A stretch of DNA of 18,760 nucleotides from a virus (lineage: Duplodnaviria; Heunggongvirae; Uroviricota; Caudoviricetes), in IMG/VR virus record IMGVR_UViG_2563366883_000018. One strand, written 5' to 3'. Both the position numbers and the translations under genes were made by a program. The notes beneath the pieces were generated by a model. The model saw only the letters and a program-made list of their open reading frames with translations. It was not told the origin of the DNA and made no database searches. Shown here in pieces: positions 2,304 through 17,381 of this stretch (the first letter of the stretch is position 1; every line of letters starts with the position of its first letter).

Positions 2304-2532
2304 TATAATAAACTTACTTTTTTATCATTTTTCCACTTTAACAACATTTTGCTCCACTTTTCCACGACCAAACAACTTGAAATCTGGTTAAAATAACACG
2401 CAACACTATTCTTCTTCCTTGAGTCCGCCCGGAACTCGAAAAACAAACCGAGTTAAAGCCATTTTTCACAAAATCGATTTTGGGTCTCACCAAAATTACG
2501 GGGTTGCATACGCATTCGTTTATTTTCGAACG

Positions 2533-2552
2533 TGTACATACAAATATGTACA
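2533..2552. promoter_or_regulatory. Perfect 8-bp-arm palindrome TGTACATA-CAAA-TATGTACA about 70 bp upstream of pinQ; candidate operator or protein-binding site
   Basis: Read directly from sequence; function not established. Confidence 0.3.
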
Positions 2553-2619
2553 AAAATAATCAAAATTATTTTCTGAGATGCATTATGATATGAACACCAA
2601 TTTCGTATAGAATCTCACT

Positions 2620-3210
2620 ATGTCTCGAATTTTTGCTTACTGTCGGATATCAACGCTGGATCAGACCACCGAAAATCAACGCCGGGAAATCGAAAGTGCA
2701 GGTTTTAAAATCAAACCTCAGCAAATAATCGAAGAACACATTAGCGGCTCAGCAGCAACCAGTGAGCGTCCTGGTTTTAACCGGTTGCTTGCTCGCCTGA
2801 AATGTGGTGATCAATTGATTGTGACAAAACTGGATCGCCTTGGTTGTAATGCAATGGATATCAGGAAAACAGTGGAACAACTGACCGAAACAGGTATCAG
2901 AGTGCATTGCTTAGCATTGGGGGGCATTGACCTGACCAGTCCAACAGGAAAAATGATGATGCAAGTAATTTCAGCAGTCGCTGAATTTGAACGAGACCTT
3001 TTACTTGAACGCACTCATTCCGGGATAGTAAGAGCCCGCGGCGCAGGGAAACGTTTTGGTCGACCACCTGTGTTAAATGAAGAACAGAAACAGGTGGTAT
3101 TCGAACGAATTAAGTCAGGTGTAAGTATAAGTGCCATTGCCCGGGAATTCAAAACCTCGCGGCAAACCATTTTAAGAGCCAAAGCAAAACTTCAGACACC
3201 TGACATATAA
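2620..3210 (+). CDS. pinQ: Serine recombinase (resolvase/invertase family, PinQ/PinR-like), 196 aa
   Basis: ORF track 2620..3210(+); N-terminal YCRISTLDQ motif with catalytic Ser10, C-terminal HTH region; strong recalled similarity to K-12 PinQ/PinR. Confidence 0.93.
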
Positions 3211-3307
3211 AAAATAATCTCGGTGTGAGATGCTTTACGTCTTCCAAGCCCCCTTCCTTGCCGTAAATGGAAAGATACATCTAATTATAGAATTTATATG
3301 TTTTACC

Positions 3308-3883
3308 CTACGGCAGTGCTGGCCATTCAATATCCTGTGCAGTTGACGTATCAACACGGTTCAGCAATACCCGATACTTTTTCCATGCTTCCAGCAACGA
3401 GATTTCTTCCTCCGTTGCAATTTCCAGATCTGCAGCATCCTGAAGCGGCGCAATATGCTCACTGGCTACCTGCATCAGGTTGTTTTTTGTTTCTTCCGCC
3501 TCCCGGATCCGGAACAGTTTTTCTGCTTCCGTATCCTTCACCCAGGCTGTGCCGTTCCACTTCTGAAACTCCCCTTCCGGGGATAACCAGGTGACATTTT
3601 CCGGTAATGGGCCAAGTTCAGAAATAAATAACGCGTCGCCGGAAGCCACGTCATAGACGGTTTTACCCCGATGATCTTCAACGAGATGCCACGATGCCTC
3701 ATCACTGTTGAAAACAGCCACGAAGCCAGCCGGAATATCTGGCGGTGCAATATAGGAACTGTTTGCTGGCAGACCTGTATGAGGCGGAATATATGCGTCA
3801 CCTTCACCAATAAATTCATTAGTTCCTGCCAGCAGATTATAAATTTTTATGGTCCGTGGTTGTTCACTCATTCTGAATGCCAT
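3308..3883 (-). CDS. tfaQ: Tail fibre assembly protein (Tfa family), 191 aa
   Basis: ORF track 3308..3883(-); ATG at 3883-3881 overlaps the stf stop by 1 nt (TAATG), indicating translational coupling; lambda Tfa-like sequence. Confidence 0.9.
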
Positions 3884-6798
3884 TATGCAAGCCTCACAAT
3901 GTAGTTAAATGCGATGTTTTTGACAGTGTTTTCCGCGTTACCAGCAGCGTTAACGGTGATGGTGTGTCCATGTGAGCCAATCGCAACAGAGTGCGTATGA
4001 GCACCAATACCGACAGTATGTGCGTGAGCACCTGCAGATGCAGCTGTGCCGCTGACACTATGAGTGTGCGCTCCTGCAGCACTTGTATTCACACTGGCCG
4101 CAGACACTACCTTATGTACTGACCCATTTTGTGACCACTGGCTGACTGCTGATGCGCCTGTGACACTATGAGTATGGTTTCCGGCACTTGCGGCTGTACC
4201 GCTCACACTGTGCGTATGCGCCCCGGTGTTATTCGTGGATTTAGTGCCGTAATCAAACGACGATGTGGTTTTCGTCCCCAAATCCGTACTGGATGCACTG
4301 GCGCTGTGGGTGTGCGATTTAATGCCGTCCTGTTCCTGAGATAATACGGCCCGACCACTGGCAGGTTTGCCCTTAATCGTCCAGCCACGCATATCAGGGA
4401 TCACGCCTGACGGATAAGCGGTTGCAAGTTTCGGGTAAGCGGATTTGTCAAAAGTCTGCCCCTGCATCAGGGCATAACCAGACGGAACGGTATCTGATGG
4501 CCACGGGATTGGTGCGCCAGGCGGATAAAACTGCTCTGATGGCGTATAGAGTGAATAAACTGTACCGTCCGTTAACCCTTCCGGCTTATTAGCAGAATAT
4601 GCTGGTGACGTATGAATAGTCACGCTGGCATTACTGGTATAATCCCATTGAATATTTACACCAGTCGCATAATTTCCGATTGCAACGTAAATATCGTAAG
4701 TATCACCAGATGTATTGACCCAGGCAAAATTTGTAAACCCTGTCGATGTGCGCTGCCATAAAGCACCAGTAATCCCCTTCGGATTACCATTACCTGCACG
4801 CAAAACAAGTTCAGATATACCTGCCTGTTGAGGTGACCCCACGTTAAATCCCGCGCCACCAATCAACGTAATTGAAACAACAGAACTCGCCTGTGGCATG
4901 GTTACCGTTGCTAATTTGAACCAACCAGCACCACCGCTGAAGGACATTGTTGTTGAGTTAAGCGTACCAATATCTTTCGGCGTCAGTGTTATATCCGCTG
5001 AAAGCGCCTTACCATTCACCTTACGGGCAGAAGGTACCCGACCATTCGCATTATCATTAGCTGCTTTCACTGCTTTCGGTGTCGCGGCAAGCGTTTCAGA
5101 TGCGCTGTTGGTTGCACTACTGAGCTGGACAATTCCTTTTTGTGCTGTCGTAGCGTCCTGAGCAGTATATTTCCCGTTAGCAAGGTCATAGGCTGCCTTT
5201 ACCGACTTTGGCGTTGCCGCCAGCATTTCAGATGTGCTGTTGGTCGCGCTGCTGAGCTGAACTATCCCTTTCTGTGCTGTCGTTGCATCCTGTGCGGTGT
5301 ATTTCCCGTTAGCCAGCTCATACGCGGCCTTAACGGCTTTTGGCGTTGCCGCCAGTGACTCGGAAGTGCTGTTAGTCGCACTGCTGAGCTGTACTATCCC
5401 CTTTTTCGTCGTGCTCGCATCCTCAAGCGCCACGGCGGATGCAATATCCTCTGCCCGTTTTGCCGCTGTCTCGGCGCGCGTTGCCGCGGATTCCGCCGTA
5501 CTTTTGCTCTGAGCTGCCGCCGTCGCACTGCCAGCTGCCTCTGTCGCCTTCGTGGATGCCGTCGTGGCGCTGCCCTTTGCTGCTGACGCCTGTCTGGTCG
5601 CCTCATCTTTTGAAGCAGACGCAGATGATGCCGATGACGCCGCCGAACTGGCGGACGATGCGGCAGCCGTTTTTGAGGATTCTGCGCTGGTTTCCGACGC
5701 TTTCGCGTTCGTCTCGGATGTCTTCGCTGCGGAAGCAGACCTCGCTGCTGCGCTGGCCTGTTCAGTGGCTTCGCCAGCCTTCGTTGTGGCTGTTGAAGCG
5801 GACGATGCGGCGCTTTCTGCCGATTTTCCGGCAGCGGTGGCACTGGCTGAGGCCTGCCCGGCACTTGTTGACGCGGCACTGGCAGACGACGCAGCCGCTG
5901 TTTTTGAGCCTGCCGCAGCTGAGGCGCTCTGTCCCGCTGCCGTCTCAGAAGACCTGGCGTTCGTCTCGGACGTTTTTGCCGCCTTCGCGGAATTTGCTGC
6001 CGCCGTTGCCGAGGAAGCTGCGCTACTGGCGCTCGAGGATGCGTTCGTTTCTGATGATTTTGCCGCCTCTTTTGAAGCCGACGCATCCCGGGCTGAGGTG
6101 GCAGCTTCTGACGCTTTCGTAGTCGCGGTGGATGCAGAAGTGGCGGCTGATTGTTGTGACGCTGCAGCATTCGTTTCTGACGTTTTCGCGGCAGCGGCAC
6201 TGGTAGCTGCCGCGCTTTTTGAGGACTCTGCAGCGGCAGCACTTTTTTCCGCTTCAGTGGCCTTTGTTGATGCCGTTCCTGCGCTGGAAGACGCTGACTG
6301 AGCCGACGAAGCGGCCTGTCCGGCTGACGTGCTGGCTGCACGTGCTGAATCTGCAGCATCAGTCGCATGGGTTGCCGCCTCACGGGCAGATGTGCCGGCA
6401 TCACTGGCTGACTTCTTCGCGGCTGCCGTGTTCTGTGCCACCACGGACGCGTTACGCGCCACCTCTTCCACCATCTGTTCAAAACGGCGCAGTGCCTCCG
6501 GACGGGCATCATCCTCCGTCATGGCACCGAGAAAATCATTCAGCGTACCGGGTTGAGAATCTTCATACACGGTGATGGTCCCGGCATGTGACGGCGGGAA
6601 TCCTTCCACCAACAGAATAACGCTGTACTGCCCGTACTCAACGTCCATGCTGTAACGCCCGGCTTCATCCGGATTTTCTGAGGCCAGCGTGTTCACCACC
6701 ACCGTGGTGCTGTTACGTTTTGCTTTCAGCTGGATTGTGCAGTTCTGTACCGGTTTTCCTGTGCCATCTTTCAGTACACCTGAAATCTTTACTGCCAT
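3883..6798 (-). CDS. stfQ: Side tail fibre protein, full length (about 971 aa from ATG at 6798): lambda-Stf-like N-terminus, long Ala/Ser/Thr-rich central region, three tandem fibre repeats, His-rich HTHS C-terminal domain
   Basis: ORF track 3883..6804(-) begins with GTG; the ATG two codons in gives [26 protein letters not shown] (lambda Stf N-terminus as recalled) and is preceded by GGGGTGA; C-terminus ...[39 protein letters not shown] matches the lambda Stf C-terminus. Confidence 0.9.
5040..5410. repeat. Three tandem copies of a repeat of about 129 bp inside stfQ, encoding ...[44 protein letters not shown] (third copy degenerate)
   Basis: Visible in the protein (three near-identical 43-aa units) and in DNA (e.g. 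5091-5210 versus 5221-5340); boundaries approximate. Confidence 0.8.
5420..6470. repeat. GC-rich low-complexity region of stfQ encoding the Ala/Ser/Thr-rich segment; source of several spurious long alternative-frame ORFs
   Basis: Protein shows reiterated [18 protein letters not shown] motifs; DNA is dominated by GCNGC triplets; boundaries approximate. Confidence 0.7.
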
Positions 6799-10981: not shown

Positions 10982-11252
10982 GATGTTACCGTAGTATGTG
11001 AGTATCCATCGAATAGACACCAAGCAAAAAAGCTCCCGAAGGAGCCTTCATTTTCACTTTTTTAAATCCAACGACAGACGGCTGGCATTTAAGTATTGTG
11101 AAATATTATCAAATGTAATCATCATTGATTTACAAAAGATACATTTTGCCCCGAAAGGATTCATGTCAGAAACATCAAAAGATGATGTTCTATACTGGGA
11201 ACCATGACAACACGGGCATCTAAAGTGAATATGGTTTGTAATATTGTCTACC

Positions 11253-11465
11253 TCAAAGCGCCACTACATGAACAGCGGCAGGACCTTTAGGTCCGTTCTC
11301 AATACCAAATTCAACTTCCTGATTCTCAGTTAATGTTTTGAAATCGTTGCTCTGAATTGCTGAGAAATGGACAAACACATCTTTGCTGCCATCTTTCGGC
11401 GTGATGAAACCAAAACCTTTTTCAGGGTTAAACCATTTCACTAAACCAGTCATTTTGTTAGACAT
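11253..11465 (-). CDS. cspI: CspA-family cold-shock protein, 70 aa
   Basis: ORF track 11253..11465(-); [13 protein letters not shown]...KGFGFI...FVHFSA cold-shock domain with RNP1/RNP2 motifs; followed on the minus strand by a long AT-rich leader (11466 to about 11650). Confidence 0.93.
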
Positions 11466-11826
11466 AATTATTACCTTTTGAAGAAATTAGCCCTTGGGCA
11501 GAATGGTCCGAAAAAAATATCAGAGAGAAAAACCAACAAGGAAATCTCAAGAGGTACAAATAATAAAATTATAACAATGACTGCTTCAGATAAATTTGTA
11601 ACAAACCAGAACACCATTAACGCATGATTAACCACCCATAGCAAGGATTACTTTTGTAAAGAAAAACACAGCAATGAAAGAATAGCTTTATTTATTAATA
11701 AAACGTGTCATTCTGATTAAGACCTTTTATCTTACCCTTAAGATTTCAGGAATTTTGGCTCATGGAAGAGTCCTTTTTATTCAAATTTTACATTCCGCGA
11801 TGTAAATGTTCCGATTTAATATTACC

Positions 11827-12850
<1,024 letters not shown>

Positions 12851-12854
<4 letters not shown>

Positions 12855-13162
12855 AGATATTTATGATGAGGACGCTCGTGCTTATTGGCAGGATTTTCAA
12901 TCTTAAAGGAGTACTGATGCTGCAGATAAGACTCAACTTTTTCTGACAATTTTTCTGCTACTTCCAGGAAGACTTGCCGGACGCTCCTTCTGGCTGCTGC
13001 CTCATAAAACTCCAGCGCAGCTCCTTCAACACGGTCCATGGCGACATCCAGGTCAAAAATTTCACCGTCAAAGCGTTCTTTGTCCTGTAAGGCTACAGTT
13101 ACCGTAACTTTATTCTCAAAATTACGGACTCCTTTCACAACCAGTTCATAGTCTTGAGTCAT
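12851..13162 (-). CDS. ydfR: Prophage protein of unknown function, 103 aa, between holin and endolysin
   Basis: ORF track 12851..13162(-); ATG start with GAGGAGAG 7 nt upstream; recalled YdfR. Confidence 0.8.
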
Positions 13163-13166
13163 TGGA

Positions 13167-13382
13167 TTACTCTCCTCTCGCAGCCTTACGCCTGTCTTCT
13201 TTAATCTTGAAATAAAGATTTGTCAGATACGTCAGCAGGCCAAAAACCAGGCTACCCAGCACACCGATTGCAGCCCACTGTGACGGAGTTACTTTATCGA
13301 GTAACTGCAATGCCCAGAAACCAGCATTACCCGCCGATGTGCCATAGGCAACACCTGTTGTTAACTTATCCATTGATTTCAT
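13167..13382 (-). CDS. essQ: Class II holin, phage-21 S-type pinholin, 71 aa, with dual-start motif MKSM
   Basis: ORF track 13167..13457(-); the internal ATG at 13382 gives [71 protein letters not shown], near-identical in pattern to recalled S21. Confidence 0.9.
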
Positions 13383-13601: not shown

Positions 13602-13772
13602 ATGTCAGAACGTAAAAACTCAAAATCACGCCGTAATTATCTCGTTAAATGTTCCTGCCCAAACTGCACCCAAGAGTCAGAACACAGTTTTTCAAGAGTA
13701 CAAAAAGGTGCCCTTTTGATCTGCCCTCATTGCAACAAAGTATTCCAGACAAATCTTAAAGCTGTAGCCTGA
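13602..13772 (+). CDS. Small zinc-ribbon protein, 56 aa (CPNC ... CPHC)
   Basis: ORF track 13551..13772(+); the internal ATG at 13602 is preceded by AGGAAAAG; two CxxC pairs; diverges from the late operon. Confidence 0.55.
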   Translation: MSERKNSKSRRNYLVKCSCPNCTQESEHSFSRVQKGALLICPHCNKVFQTNLKAVA

Positions 13773-13853: not shown

Positions 13854-14135
13854 TGAGATTGTGGTGCTTTTTGTGGGAGTCATCCACTTACGCACTTTGT
13901 TTTGCCATGCCAGCAGTTAGCTTCTGCTGTAAAACTATTCAGGCAGCAAACCTGCACTTCACCACAATGGTTAGCATACTTTTCCTGATTAAGATTTTGC
14001 CAAATATGCTAGCCATTGTTTCATGTATTGGACCTCCTTACTTTTTATTAAAGAGATCCAATATTCACTACTCTGTCCGTATCTCTACTCAGGCATCAGC
14101 CTTCTTCGTTATCGTATACAGACGAGCGATGAATT

Positions 14136-14351
14136 TTAATCAGTAATGATGACATTTGCTGCTGCAGGACCTTTAGCACCACTCTCTATAGAGAAGGTAA
14201 CCTTTTGACCTTCAAATAAGGTTCGATAATTATCATTCTGAATCGCAGAAAAATGCACAAACACATCTTTACTACCATCAACAGGAGAAATAAAGCCGAA
14301 ACCTTTATCAGCGTTAAACCATTTTACTAAACCAGTCATTTTATTTGACAT
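14136..14351 (-). CDS. cspB: CspA-family cold-shock protein, 71 aa
   Basis: ORF track 14136..14351(-); [21 protein letters not shown]... cold-shock domain. Confidence 0.93.
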
Positions 14352-14651
14352 TCTACATTCCTTAACTTGAGCCTTTCGGCATAAATGGTTTGCATAACAG
14401 AAACGACTTCGTACTTAATTGGAGAGACTCAAAGAAGGAATAAGTGAATAACACCTGAAATGAGAACTGCTTTAGTAAACTACTTCGTATATCGTCTGTT
14501 CTTCAAACCGACGCAATCATTAACGCATAGTTGAACATATGAAGCAATGTTTATTTTAGACATCCAGCCATCTTCAACCCCATCAAAAAACTATAGCTTT
14601 CTTCAGGAACGTGTGTATAGTGCGCCAAGTTATCAGTATTAAGGAATTTTT

Positions 14652-14864
14652 TTGTCCCGTAAAATGACAGGAATTGTCAAAACCTTTGACGGCAAAAGCG
14701 GCAAGGGCCTTATCACCCCATCCGATGGTCGTATCGATGTCCAGCTTCATGTTTCAGCGCTCAATCTCCGCGATGCAGAAGAAATTACCACCGGATTACG
14801 CGTGGAATTTTGCCGGATAAATGGTCTGCGTGGCCCTTCAGCTGCCAATGTTTACCTTTCATGA
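14652..14864 (+). CDS. cspF: CspA-family cold-shock-like protein, 70 aa, divergent from cspB
   Basis: ORF track 14652..14864(+); apparent TTG start (MSRKMTG...); cold-shock domain with a divergent RNP region. Confidence 0.85.
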
Positions 14865-14918
14865 GCTATATTAAAGCTTTAATTTCAGGCCCCATCGGAT
14901 CACACATGGAGAGTTTTT

Positions 14919-15008
14919 ATGAATAACCCCGTCTGTCTTGATGACTGGTTGATTGGCTTTAAAAGCTTATGCTGTACTTTGGCCGTAATAGCTCTGCTAA
15001 TAATATAA
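14919..15008 (+). CDS. Candidate small hydrophobic protein, 29 aa ([29 protein letters not shown])
   Basis: ATG at 14919 preceded by GGAGAG at 5-nt spacing; hydrophobic C-terminal half; no homology known to me. Confidence 0.25.
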
Positions 15009-15156
15009 TAAGCAGACTCATTGTGTTTAGGGACATTGTACTGGAAGAAAACATTTTAAACATCAGGCAAATAACCAAGTCACCAGCTAAATAATAAGTT
15101 AACAGACATGAGTCCCGGGATGAGATTCAACATTACCATTGCCCCATTTAAAGCAC

Positions 15157-15192
15157 AAAACCCGCTCATCAGCGGGTTTTCTACTTTTTCTT
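15157..15192. terminator. Bidirectional rho-independent terminator (stem AACCCGCT/AGCGGGTT, loop CATC) between convergent cspF and quuQ; on the minus strand a candidate tR'
   Basis: Plus strand hairpin followed by TTTTCTACTTTTTC; minus strand hairpin followed by TTTTGTGCTTT. Confidence 0.6.
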
Positions 15193-15225
15193 AGCGTCGG
15201 GTATACAAAGCCCATCGTTGAAAAA

Positions 15226-15254
15226 ATTTTATCCATATTTTTTGAAAAATGCAA
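15226..15254 (-). promoter_or_regulatory. Candidate Q-dependent late promoter (pR'-like): -35 TTGCAT, 17-bp spacer, -10 TAAAAT on the minus strand
   Basis: Read from sequence; lies 32-60 nt downstream of the quuQ stop and about 40 nt upstream of the terminator hairpin. Confidence 0.4.
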
Positions 15255-15285
15255 ACATCATGTCGCCATCTTCAGCAAAAATCAT

Positions 15286-16038
15286 TTATCTCGTCACCTT
15301 CCTCAATTGCGCTTCCGCGTATGCTTCTTCCTGCCAGCACTTTGTTACCAGTTTACCAATGACGTCCGCATACCCCTTATACCACTGATAATCGGTCAGG
15401 TCTGGTACCAGCTTCTGGACATGACGTCGTGCCAGCGTGGTCGGTAAACGACTAAACCGGTTTCCATTACAACGCCCACAAATCTTATATACCGGTACGC
15501 CATGAAACCGGGTTCTTTTTTCATCCAGAACAATCCCTTTACCCTTACACCCTCTGCACGCTGTGCTGGCTTCGCCCTTACCATGGCAATGCTGACATAG
15601 TTCCTTCACCCATTCTTCCTTGATTACAGATTCCCCGCGTCTGTAGTGTTTCACCACTTCGCGCAATACATTATAAAATCCCGTACCTGAACAATGCTCA
15701 CAGCGAGCCTTACTTGCCGCAGACCTGGAGTAATCAGCAAAGGCAAAACTCACGAGGTAAGGAATAATCTGTAACCGGATTTCTTCACTCAATTTGTTCA
15801 ATGTCGGGTTATCCAGTGCCATCGCGTAATTTAGCAGGCCTTCAATCGCAAACTGAGGGTCCTGAACACCAACTTTTGCCAGAAATAAGGCCAACCCAAG
15901 TGGTGCTTTCGACTGCACCATCCCCTGCGCTGCCATTACATCCGTAATTGTTAAACAACCGGTGCCTGCCGCTGGAGCGTCATCGCTCAATTTTGGAGAT
16001 TTTGGGGAGTAATATTTTGGTAAGGCTTCAAGGTTCAT
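15286..16038 (-). CDS. quuQ: Late-gene antiterminator Q-like protein, 250 aa
   Basis: ORF track 15286..16068(-); the internal ATG at 16038 is preceded by GGAG and gives 250 aa; several CxxC pairs (CEHC, CQHC, CRGC, CGRC). Confidence 0.88.
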   Translation of the reverse strand: MNLEALPKYYSPKSPKLSDDAPAAGTGCLTITDVMAAQGMVQSKAPLGLALFLAKVGVQDPQFAIEGLLNYAMALDNPTLNKLSEEIRLQIIPYLVSFAFADYSRSAASKARCEHCSGTGFYNVLREVVKHYRRGESVIKEEWVKELCQHCHGKGEASTACRGCKGKGIVLDEKRTRFHGVPVYKICGRCNGNRFSRLPTTLARRHVQKLVPDLTDYQWYKGYADVIGKLVTKCWQEEAYAEAQLRKVTR

Positions 16039-16051
16039 GCTCGTTCTCCAC

Positions 16052-17101
16052 TTACGCCAGTACGCCAATTGCCAGCGCGCGATCGATAAAACGAAATATC
16101 AGCTCCAGTTGGGAGCCATACTTATCTTCAAATGCCACTGTATCCGTATGCAGCTCGTTGTGATGCTTTCTGCACAAAGGCAACACAAAGAGATCATGTG
16201 CTTTTGTTCCCATTCCGCCCTGCCCGTGACCAATCAGATGATGCGGATCGTCGGCTGGCATACCGCAGCAAGCACACGGCTGTGTCTTAACCCAACGTGT
16301 GTATTTCTCCTTAACCCAGCGGCGACGTTTAGGCAGCTTCATGAAAGATTCCGGAGACTCTGGATCAACGGTGATGCTTACCACCGTCTTTTCCTGTGGT
16401 GATTTTTGTTGCTGGTGGGCGTAAGGCAACGGTGCAAGATTTTTTGTGCGTTGTTTCAATATGCTGGTGGCGGTCTGCTCTCCCGGTACGATGTCGCTTT
16501 CGCGGTACACCGAGCAGATTTTTTCCGCTGGTAATCCCAGCGAACGACGCGATACAGCCTCAGGTAGTGCATCCACCACCTGATTGCAGACCGCCCACCA
16601 GGATAATTCAGCCAAAGATAATTCCCGCTCCTGCGTACCGCTTATTGCGTGACGGATGACGTCAATCACCCATGCTGTCAGATTTTGTTGAGCAAGCAGC
16701 TCCAGTGATTCCGATGTCTGGTCACGCAGTTGGTTGTCGCAGTGCCAGCACAACACCATTGCGCCGGTACCATAACGGTGAATGACTGTTTCAGTGTGAT
16801 GGTAATCGCCATTAGGCCACTGGCAGGATGTAACATGACGTAATAGCCAGTCGGACAATGCGCCAACGCCGCCAGCAGCACGAATCACCCGTTCGTTACT
16901 AAAAAACGGCAGCAATGTTTTGTCTTCCGCCAGCGGCTGGCGAACGGCAGGAACGACTCCGGATGGCAGATTACGCATGCTTTTTGGTTCCGGTTCCACC
17001 AGCACTCGAGGATTATGAAATATCTGTATGGATTCACGGCCCGGCTTAAGGACCACCAGCCCAAGCTCAGGCACCAGAACAGGTCTAAGTAATACCCGCA
17101 C
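16052..17101 (-). CDS. ydfU: DUF968-family prophage protein, 349 aa, with C-terminal Cys/His HNH-like motif
   Basis: ORF track 16052..17140(-); the GTG at 17101 gives the 349-aa length I recall for YdfU and sits 1 nt after the upstream ORF's stop; C-terminus CACCG...HHLIGHGQGGMGTKAHDLFVLPLCRKHHNELH. Confidence 0.8.
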   Translation of the reverse strand: MRVLLRPVLVPELGLVVLKPGRESIQIFHNPRVLVEPEPKSMRNLPSGVVPAVRQPLAEDKTLLPFFSNERVIRAAGGVGALSDWLLRHVTSCQWPNGDYHHTETVIHRYGTGAMVLCWHCDNQLRDQTSESLELLAQQNLTAWVIDVIRHAISGTQERELSLAELSWWAVCNQVVDALPEAVSRRSLGLPAEKICSVYRESDIVPGEQTATSILKQRTKNLAPLPYAHQQQKSPQEKTVVSITVDPESPESFMKLPKRRRWVKEKYTRWVKTQPCACCGMPADDPHHLIGHGQGGMGTKAHDLFVLPLCRKHHNELHTDTVAFEDKYGSQLELIFRFIDRALAIGVLA

Positions 17102-17102
17102 G

Positions 17103-17381
17103 TTACCTCCAGATCCGTTGCTGGAAAGTGCGGGACGCACGTGGTGGGCGTTCGGAATAAGGCAGCCTGACAGAGATTATCCAGTGCCGATAGTCGAGAC
17201 TGAGAGCTTTCTTAACCTCGAACCCGCGCCTGCGGTAAGAATGAATCAGCCATTCGGCCTGTTCTGCAGTGCATGGAGGGTGCTGGAACCATTCAGACTT
17301 GAATGCGTGAGAATACCGCCCGTGCGTGCAGGCAAGAACGGGCGAATTATCAGAATTGTAATATTTTGCGTTGCGTGCCAT
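17103..17381 (-). CDS. Hypothetical prophage protein, 92 aa
   Basis: ORF track 17103..17381(-); ATG start with GGAG 8 nt upstream; stop abuts the ydfU start. Confidence 0.6.
   Translation of the reverse strand: MARNAKYYNSDNSPVLACTHGRYSHAFKSEWFQHPPCTAEQAEWLIHSYRRRGFEVKKALSLDYRHWIISVRLPYSERPPRASRTFQQRIWR

Follow-up and report, generated by a model that had tools for sequence, protein, structure and literature searches.

The window analyzed here, an 18,760-nucleotide (nt) stretch of DNA deposited as IMG/VR virus record IMGVR_UViG_2563366883_000018, was identified as the Qin cryptic prophage of E. coli K-12, to which it is 99.8% identical. We studied positions 15157-15285 of this window, which are the first 129 nt past the stop codon of the antiterminator gene quuQ (ydfT), read on the minus strand. 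An earlier note on this DNA had placed a candidate late-control region here, made up of a pR'-like promoter and a tR' hairpin. MG1655 positions were derived from aligned gene positions (K-12 coordinate = window + 1,627,203). Within the stretch only one base was found to differ from MG1655, C15194 (+26) of the window being a T in K-12. Over 1,200 complete E. coli genomes, K-12 derivatives among them, matched the region 14900-15400 at an identity of at least 99%. The features identified at the locus are the following:

15286..16038, minus strand: quuQ, annotated ydfT in K-12, encoding a 250-aa lambda-family antiterminator Q (Pfam, structures, tblastn).
15288-15286, minus strand: quuQ stop codon TAA, read from the sequence.
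15254-15249, minus strand: -35 hexamer TTGCAT, read from the sequence, starting 31 nt past the Q stop; phi80 has an identical annotated pR' -35.
15248-15232, minus strand: 17-nt spacer TTTTCAAAAAATATGGA, the putative Q-binding element (QBE), judged by position only.
15231-15226, minus strand: -10 hexamer TAAAAT, read from the sequence.
15225-15220, minus strand: TTTTTC, the 6 nt between the -10 and the predicted +1, read from the sequence.
15219-15211, minus strand: predicted +1 (A15219) and sigma-dependent pause element AACGATGGG (+1 to +9), by homology.
15219..15153, minus strand: predicted constitutive short transcript of ~67 nt, the 5' end by homology and the 3' end from Term-seq.
15180-15157 (+40 to +63), minus strand: tR'-type intrinsic terminator hairpin AAAACCCGCT-GATG-AGCGGGTTTT (sequence, folding, conservation).
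15150..15160, minus strand: U-tract TTTTGTGCTTT, read from the sequence, with the mapped RNA 3' end C15153 inside it.

We conclude with high confidence that the stretch after quuQ is an unannotated example of a well-understood kind of element, the lambda/P22-type late switch.

QuuQ was found to belong to the lambda family of Q proteins. Its Pfam match was to PF03589 (E 1e-53) together with a DnaJ_CXXCXGXG motif, and nothing else was found. It matched the lambda Q structures 7ubm/4mo1 (E 2e-35), and in tblastn it was ~33% identical to the Q proteins of lambda and P22 over the whole length (E ~6e-30). Three Q families are recognized, Q-lambda (PF03589), Q21 (PF06530), and Q82 (PF06323) (PMC9388147). 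Since QuuQ falls within PF03589, the proper comparators are lambda, P22, and phi80, and not phages 82 or 21, which the earlier note had suggested and which represent the wrong Q family. A cassette of phage 82 type or 21 type was rejected, as QuuQ has no match to PF06323 or PF06530. Compared to lambda Q, which is 207 aa long, QuuQ carries an insertion of ~40 extra residues (about 121-159) in the zinc-ribbon arm, which in the alignment contains two more CxxC motifs. The corresponding arm of lambda Q makes contact with sigma region 4. An insertion of the same kind, of 45-75 residues, was found in the Q proteins of phi80, SF6, Klebsiella phage 5 LV-2017, Gifsy-2, and YeP1. Most of the lambda-family Q proteins sampled carry an insertion of 40-75 residues, the Q proteins of lambda and P22 being the short exceptions. 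Because the insertion adds two CxxC motifs to the arm, the long-arm Q proteins probably have two zinc sites.

In the Q-dependent cassette of lambda, the Q gene is followed by a sigma-70 promoter, a pause element in the initial transcribed region, and then an intrinsic terminator, and the lysis genes come further down on the same strand; Q loads at the sigma-dependent pause element, of which AACGAT forms the -10-like core (PMC9388147). Qin resembles lambda in having a PF03589 Q, a promoter right after the Q gene, and an intrinsic terminator ahead of the lysis genes. The minus strand of Qin reads CATGATGT-TTGCAT-17 nt-TAAAAT-TTTTTC-AACGATGGGCTTTGTAT, and the two hexamers and the spacing given in the earlier note were thus all correct. 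The lambda sequence is CATGATA-TTGACT-17 nt-TAAATT-TGACTC-AACGATGGGTTAATTCG, and that of P22 is nearly identical. Common to Qin, lambda, and P22 are the layout of -35, 17 nt, -10, and 6 nt, and AACGATGG at +1 to +8. At +1 to +9 lambda is identical to Qin (AACGATGGG), while P22 is identical at +1 to +8. The -10 of both lambda and P22 is TAAATT compared to TAAAAT in Qin. The pause element is made up of the -10-like AACGAT at +1 to +6 followed by GGG, and AACGATGG occurs only once in the window. This lambda-identical pause element, which had been overlooked in the earlier note, is the strongest single piece of evidence for the cassette.

Based on the homology with the lambda and P22 late promoters, transcription is predicted to start at A15219. 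The P22 record annotates a promoter, a qut-like site, a terminator at +31 to +59, and, at the initial A of AACGAT, a probable 5' terminus for the late RNA; the start near 15219 proposed earlier agrees with this. The quuQ stop lies 66 nt ahead of the predicted +1. The composite pattern TTGCAT-N17-TAAAAT-N6-AACGAT had one occurrence in the window even when three mismatches were allowed, compared to 0.05 expected. The pattern being unique, no second candidate late promoter was found in the window. A consensus scanner gave the promoter in a register shifted by one base, TTTGCA-18-TAAAAT. Judged by its sequence the candidate promoter looks like a sigma-70 promoter, it is homologous to the annotated promoters of P22 and phi80, and a Term-seq 3' end described below is consistent with its activity.

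In the phi80 record, the annotated features are a -35 of sequence TTGCAT, a Q-binding site that occupies spacer positions 2-8, a -10, and a terminator close by. From the position of this annotated Q site alone we place the putative Qin QBE in the spacer. The site annotated in phi80 is TCGCGGA, and Qin has TTTCAAA in its place. The spacer core TTTTCAAAAAA..TGG was kept across the QuuQ clade and differs from the lambda spacer, which is TATTGAATAAAATTGGG. Like Qin, phi80 has a long-arm Q (gp17, 269 aa) with four CxxC motifs, the -35 TTGCAT, no TTGACT by the pause element, and an early terminator. It differs in that its Q is only ~36% identical to QuuQ and that its pause element is AACGCT instead of AACGAT.

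The terminator that the earlier note had seen about 40 nt downstream, a GC stem followed by a T-run, was identified as the hairpin at +40 to +63. The stem CCCGCT/AGCGGG is lengthened by A/U pairs and closed by the loop GAUG, and GTGCTTT follows directly after the hairpin on the minus strand. In Term-seq data from MG1655 (PMC7815308, supplement 1) a minus-strand 3' end, classed as "orphan", was reported at 1642356, which corresponds to C15153 of the window. This 3' end sits 8 nt past the stem, as expected for intrinsic termination, and the flanking sequence given is that of the Qin hairpin. In the two passages of the supplement that concern the site the scores were 103591 and 55367. Three growth conditions are represented in this supplement. 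Coordinates that begin with 16423 occur in it three times, and both passages used here are for the 1642356 site. The predicted start at A15219 and this 3' end at 15153 together give an RNA of ~67 nt, for which folding yielded -24 kcal/mol (z = -5.3 compared to shuffled sequences). The corresponding short RNA of lambda (6S) is 194 nt. The Qin RNA is short as in P22, in which the terminator is also near the start (+31 to +59), although the P22 terminator is unrelated in sequence to that of Qin.

A second minus-strand "orphan" 3' end was listed in the Term-seq data for one condition at 14985 of the window (K-12 1642188), ~170 nt past tR' and antisense to ynfS. It may stem from a degree of readthrough at tR' or else from a distinct antisense transcript. 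At 15029-15002 the sequence TAAACA-16-TATATT weakly resembles a promoter. The hairpin can also fold on the plus strand, where CTACTTTTTC comes after it (15157-15190), and may for this reason double as a terminator for cspF and ynfS, which converge upon it. We also considered a small peptide, as an AUG at +5 to +7 opens a frame of 38 codons that runs through the terminator (15099-15215, minus strand) and belongs to a 51-aa open reading frame (ORF) at 15099..15254. This candidate was rejected. The AUG leaves too little space for a ribosome-binding site, and the frame is probably not coding because its length is not conserved in relatives: when opened by the AUG at +5, it spans 2 codons in lambda, 11 in SKA5, and 28 in SfV.

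Conservation was analyzed by a sensitive blastn search of 15120-15300 against phage genomes, which gave 35 records. These include SfV, mEp460, 15 phages converting to Shiga toxin (Stx) type 2c, one Stx2k phage, Tritos, 2H10, and Ayreon. In most of the records the match ended exactly at 15157, the last base of the hairpin, which indicates that the hairpin travels with Q and the promoter and not with cspF. In the alignment of the phage sequences the -35, the spacer, and CAACGATGGGCTTTGTAT were nearly invariant, the linker from +22 to +38 was variable, and the hairpin and T-run were kept. The SfV and Ayreon records annotate the hairpin as a terminator, and the records of related phages annotate at most the terminator.

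The module was found to be tightly linked to Q. Of the 129 IMG/VR sites that fit the promoter pattern, 120 have a QuuQ-type gene of full length, with an identity of at least 89.9%, that ends exactly 66 nt before the predicted +1. As a linkage test, loci were also picked by the Q protein alone in a search with the Q family alignment, which returned only close relatives (at least 93% identical). All 80 loci obtained in this way carried the module at the same offset; 74 matched a relaxed module pattern, and the other six differed by 1-3 bases across the -35, the -10, and AACGATGG. Downstream of the promoter ~43 distinct variants were found, nearly all of which keep the hairpin (-8 to -15.5 kcal/mol when folded one by one) and the T-run, the exceptions being a few degenerate sequences and one recombinant. 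When the 11 variants that align without gaps were compared, 98.7% of the cells were paired, and two stem positions showed compensatory double changes. RNAalifold gave no consensus structure for 14 terminator variants because the stems were out of register.

SfV, mEp460, Ayreon, Tritos, 2H10, and the Stx2c and Stx2k phages strictly share the module with Qin, their control DNA being 80-94% identical and placed at the same offset, and the Q proteins of the Stx2c and Stx2k phages are 92.8-94% identical to QuuQ. These relatives differ from Qin by a -10 of TAAGAT or TAGGAT, by longer U-tracts, and by other linkers and downstream cargo, the latter comprising a methylase, tRNAs, and presumably stx in the Stx2c phages. 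In one Stx2c-converting phage (L006), a 141-aa ORF, a 352-aa ORF, tRNA-Met, and tRNA-Arg were found downstream of the Q-pR'-tR' module at 2500-5143, the 352-aa ORF occupying the place of an annotated DNA methylase in related phages. Such a gene order is the usual run-up to the stx genes, which would lie beyond the stretch examined.

Some loci deviated from the common arrangement. One IMG/VR contig (L100) is a recombinant in which the Qin-type -35, spacer, and -10 are joined at AACGATGGG to a lambda-type 6S sequence (TTAATTCGCTCGTTGTGG...). The junction falls exactly at AACGATGGG, which suggests that the shared pause element acts as a mosaic joint between modules. Phage HannyBb (L009) has two pR'-tR'-like copies, at 786-997 and 2480-2691. 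A diverged copy lies directly after Q, and a Qin-like copy lies 1.7 kb further on behind a degenerate remnant of a Q 3' end; in the 1.7-kb interval only tiny hypothetical ORFs and no tRNAs are annotated. In seven other viral contigs (L029, L036, L076, L078, L080, L082, and L083) the module was present with no Q gene within 1 kb upstream.

The supplement of in vitro transcription start sites obtained by ROSE held no coordinates matching the predicted Qin start, the SfV-type promoter sequence was not found in the differential RNA-seq supplements for Shigella M90T, and the locus goes unmentioned in a 2026 preprint on a pipeline for small RNAs (sRNAs). No paper describing the Qin late cassette was found. 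Full-text searches gave none that pairs quuQ/ydfT with antitermination, and the literature matches for ydfT together with cspF concern other topics.

Downstream of the hairpin the window contains the late genes and, between tR' and these, four inserted genes:

14919-15008, plus strand: ynfS (K-12 annotation with the coordinate offset).
14652-14864, plus strand: cspF (K-12 annotation, Pfam match to the cold-shock domain, CSD).
14136-14351, minus strand: cspB (K-12 annotation, CSD Pfam match).
13602-13772, plus strand: ynfU (K-12 annotation with the coordinate offset).
11827..13382, minus strand: the late (lysis) genes essQ (13167-13382), ydfR, rrrQ, and rzpQ/rzoQ (Pfam, K-12 annotation).

The Pfam matches in the lysis region were to a P21-type holin, DUF1327, and a phage lysozyme. 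ynfS encodes a validated small protein of 29 aa (PMC6001520). Rfam matches were found to cspA-type thermoregulator 5' untranslated regions before cspB (14120-14512, minus strand) and cspI (11226-11610, minus strand), and to the IS009 RNA at 3342-3540 on the minus strand. Upstream of quuQ lies ydfU (16052-17140, minus strand), whose product belongs to DUF968 and weakly matches an HNH nuclease. Its synteny with Q is shared by other phages, SfV, mEp460, Tritos, and SKA5 among them, and their records call the product either HNH endonuclease or YdfU family protein.

Altogether, these observations support the late-control reading of the region after quuQ, by homology to lambda, P22, and phi80, by linkage to Q, and by the mapped 3' end. 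The stretch is very probably the late-gene control cassette of Qin, homologous to lambda pR'-qut-tR' and P22 P-late/t-late. The proposed mechanism builds on the sequence elements observed, their homology to lambda, P22, and phi80, the strict linkage to QuuQ, and the conservation of the hairpin, along with the minus-strand 3' end that Term-seq by others has shown at the terminator in K-12. From the known systems we infer the start site, the pause, the binding of QuuQ, and readthrough. Host RNA polymerase with sigma-70 would initiate constitutively at A15219 from TTGCAT-17-TAAAAT. Sigma region 2 would then re-bind the -10-like AACGAT(GGG) at +1 to +9, and the polymerase would pause in the mid-teens. 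Without Q, transcription would terminate at the hairpin and U-tract (+40 to about +67), giving the ~67-nt RNA that ends at 15153. Once made, QuuQ would bind the putative QBE in the spacer, load on the paused polymerase, and confer resistance to terminators. The Q-modified polymerase would pass tR', run antisense to ynfS and cspF, through cspB and its terminator and antisense to ynfU, and then transcribe essQ-ydfR-rrrQ-rzpQ. We infer that the lysis genes are transcribed from the Qin late promoter in this manner.

Several observations weigh against this interpretation. Generic promoter-like sites were not significantly enriched by themselves (12 in 4.5 kb compared to 7.2 ± 2.6 expected), and the DNA is AT-rich, with 8 generic terminator-like sites in 4.5 kb compared to 4.4 ± 2.4 expected. 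TTGACT, which in lambda and P22 is found at -9 to -4, one base ahead of the pause element, is replaced by TTTTTT in Qin, and the loading of QuuQ may therefore differ. The U-tract of Qin is interrupted (UUUUGUGCUUU) compared to 6-7 U's in active relatives. Transcripts reading through from quuQ could account, partly or wholly, for the 3' end mapped to 15153. Qin is annotated as a cryptic prophage, which puts the expression and activity of QuuQ in question, and the opposite-strand genes ynfS, cspF, and ynfU now separate tR' from the lysis genes. The last two points bear on whether the cassette is a relic in K-12, where the promoter would fire and the short RNA be made while QuuQ is absent or inactive and the lysis genes are not switched on. 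Such a state is compatible with a cassette of the lambda/P22 type, and the cspB terminator, which with the opposite-strand genes breaks the path to essQ, and the lack of a paper on quuQ and antitermination in the full-text searches would fit it. However, QuuQ retains its full length and shares 99.6% identity with the Q of PhiR42_1 and 92-94% with those of Stx2c-converting phages, SKA5, and HannyBb, and the -10 of Qin, TAAAAT, is nearer to the consensus than that of active relatives. Also, the deposited complete phage genome of Tritos has the gene order Q, pR', cspB, and lysis gene S as in Qin, so that the inserted cargo is at least found in a complete phage genome. We consider a relic state in K-12 a realistic possibility, though less likely than not.

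The hairpin could alternatively be nothing but a convergent bidirectional terminator, serving the quuQ mRNA on one strand and the cspF-ynfS mRNA on the other, with promoter hexamers that arose by chance and no separate short RNA. cspF and ynfS do converge on the hairpin, promoter-like matches are not enriched in the region, and the hairpin folds on both strands, being listed by the scanner on the plus strand only, where TTTTT follows CTAC. On the minus strand it went unlisted because the T-run rule of the scanner fails once the stem extends into the T's. A convergent terminator with chance hexamers is nevertheless very unlikely because the promoter, the spacer, and AACGATGGG are homologous to late promoters annotated in lambda, P22, and phi80 and because all 80 loci selected by Q have them at a constant distance from the Q stop. 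In addition, the homology ends at the hairpin in SfV, mEp460, the Stx2c phages, and Ayreon despite their other downstream genes, and the two Term-seq passages for the site list no plus-strand 3' end at the hairpin. A further proposal accepts the ~67-nt RNA and lets it act in trans as a regulatory sRNA, as does StxS, an Hfq-binding pR'-tR' RNA. StxS of an Stx phage and IsrK of Gifsy-1 are short constitutive RNAs from antitermination-controlled prophage late promoters, and the authors of the StxS study propose antiterminated phage promoters as a source of sRNAs (PMC7547250). The predicted Qin RNA would have the same type of origin. It is predicted to have a single-stranded A-rich linker (AAGAAAAAGUAGAAAA) followed by the terminator hairpin with a U tail, its Term-seq 3' end is strong in the passages for the site, and Hfq RIL-seq contains a node "cspF.ydfT.IGR" with 70 chimeric fragments and two partners. 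The sRNA probability of this node is only 0.0024, though, and as its strand is unstated it may represent the mRNA of ynfS, which was then unannotated. Among relatives no part of the module is less conserved than the linker, Rfam gave no family across 15100-15300, and lambda 6S RNA is also without a known function (PMC7547250). StxS itself is processed by RNase E from a 258-nt precursor, binds Hfq, and has demonstrated targets (PMC7547250), which goes beyond what is known for the Qin RNA. A role in trans is improbable.

Regarding the Qin late-gene control cassette as such, the missing TTGACT deserves a closer look. In lambda, sigma region 4 is repositioned onto this -35-like site and contacts the tip of the Q arm. 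Relatives of Qin have TTTTCC or TTCTCC at this position, and TTGACT adjoining the pause element was also found to be absent in phi80, SF6, Klebsiella phage 5 LV-2017, Gifsy-2, and YeP1. It therefore looks specific to the lambda/P22 lineage and not family-defining. P22, which differs from Qin in having a short-arm, lambda-like Q of 207 aa (gp23), keeps TTGACT. As all long-arm lineages examined (Qin/SfV, phi80, SF6, Klebsiella phage 5 LV-2017, Gifsy-2, and YeP1) are without TTGACT and lambda and P22 are with it, a long-arm Q (250-272 aa) may load without docking of sigma region 4 on -35-like DNA, the enlarged two-zinc arm perhaps replacing the contact. We put this forward tentatively and hold it to be rather unlikely. 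The link between arm length and TTGACT is a correlation with n = 1 on the short-arm side, because the short-arm group is effectively a single lineage, and may serve as a lead and not as a result.

The current understanding of antitermination is unchanged by this analysis, and a specialist would not be surprised by it. With it, a function is assigned to intergenic DNA that is unannotated in the most-studied of bacterial genomes, and the "orphan" Term-seq end at K-12 1642356 is explained, most simply as the place where an RNA akin to lambda 6S, started at the Qin late promoter, terminates. Qin also provides a natural lambda-family cassette that is without the -35-like site for sigma region 4 and has an enlarged Q arm, which makes it useful beside the lambda Q structures. 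Stx2c-converting phages carry the same module upstream of their late region, with a Q that is 93.6% identical and control DNA that is 82.6% identical. Since the module is common to these phages, Qin of K-12 could serve as a safe model for how that Q allele controls late and toxin-gene transcription.

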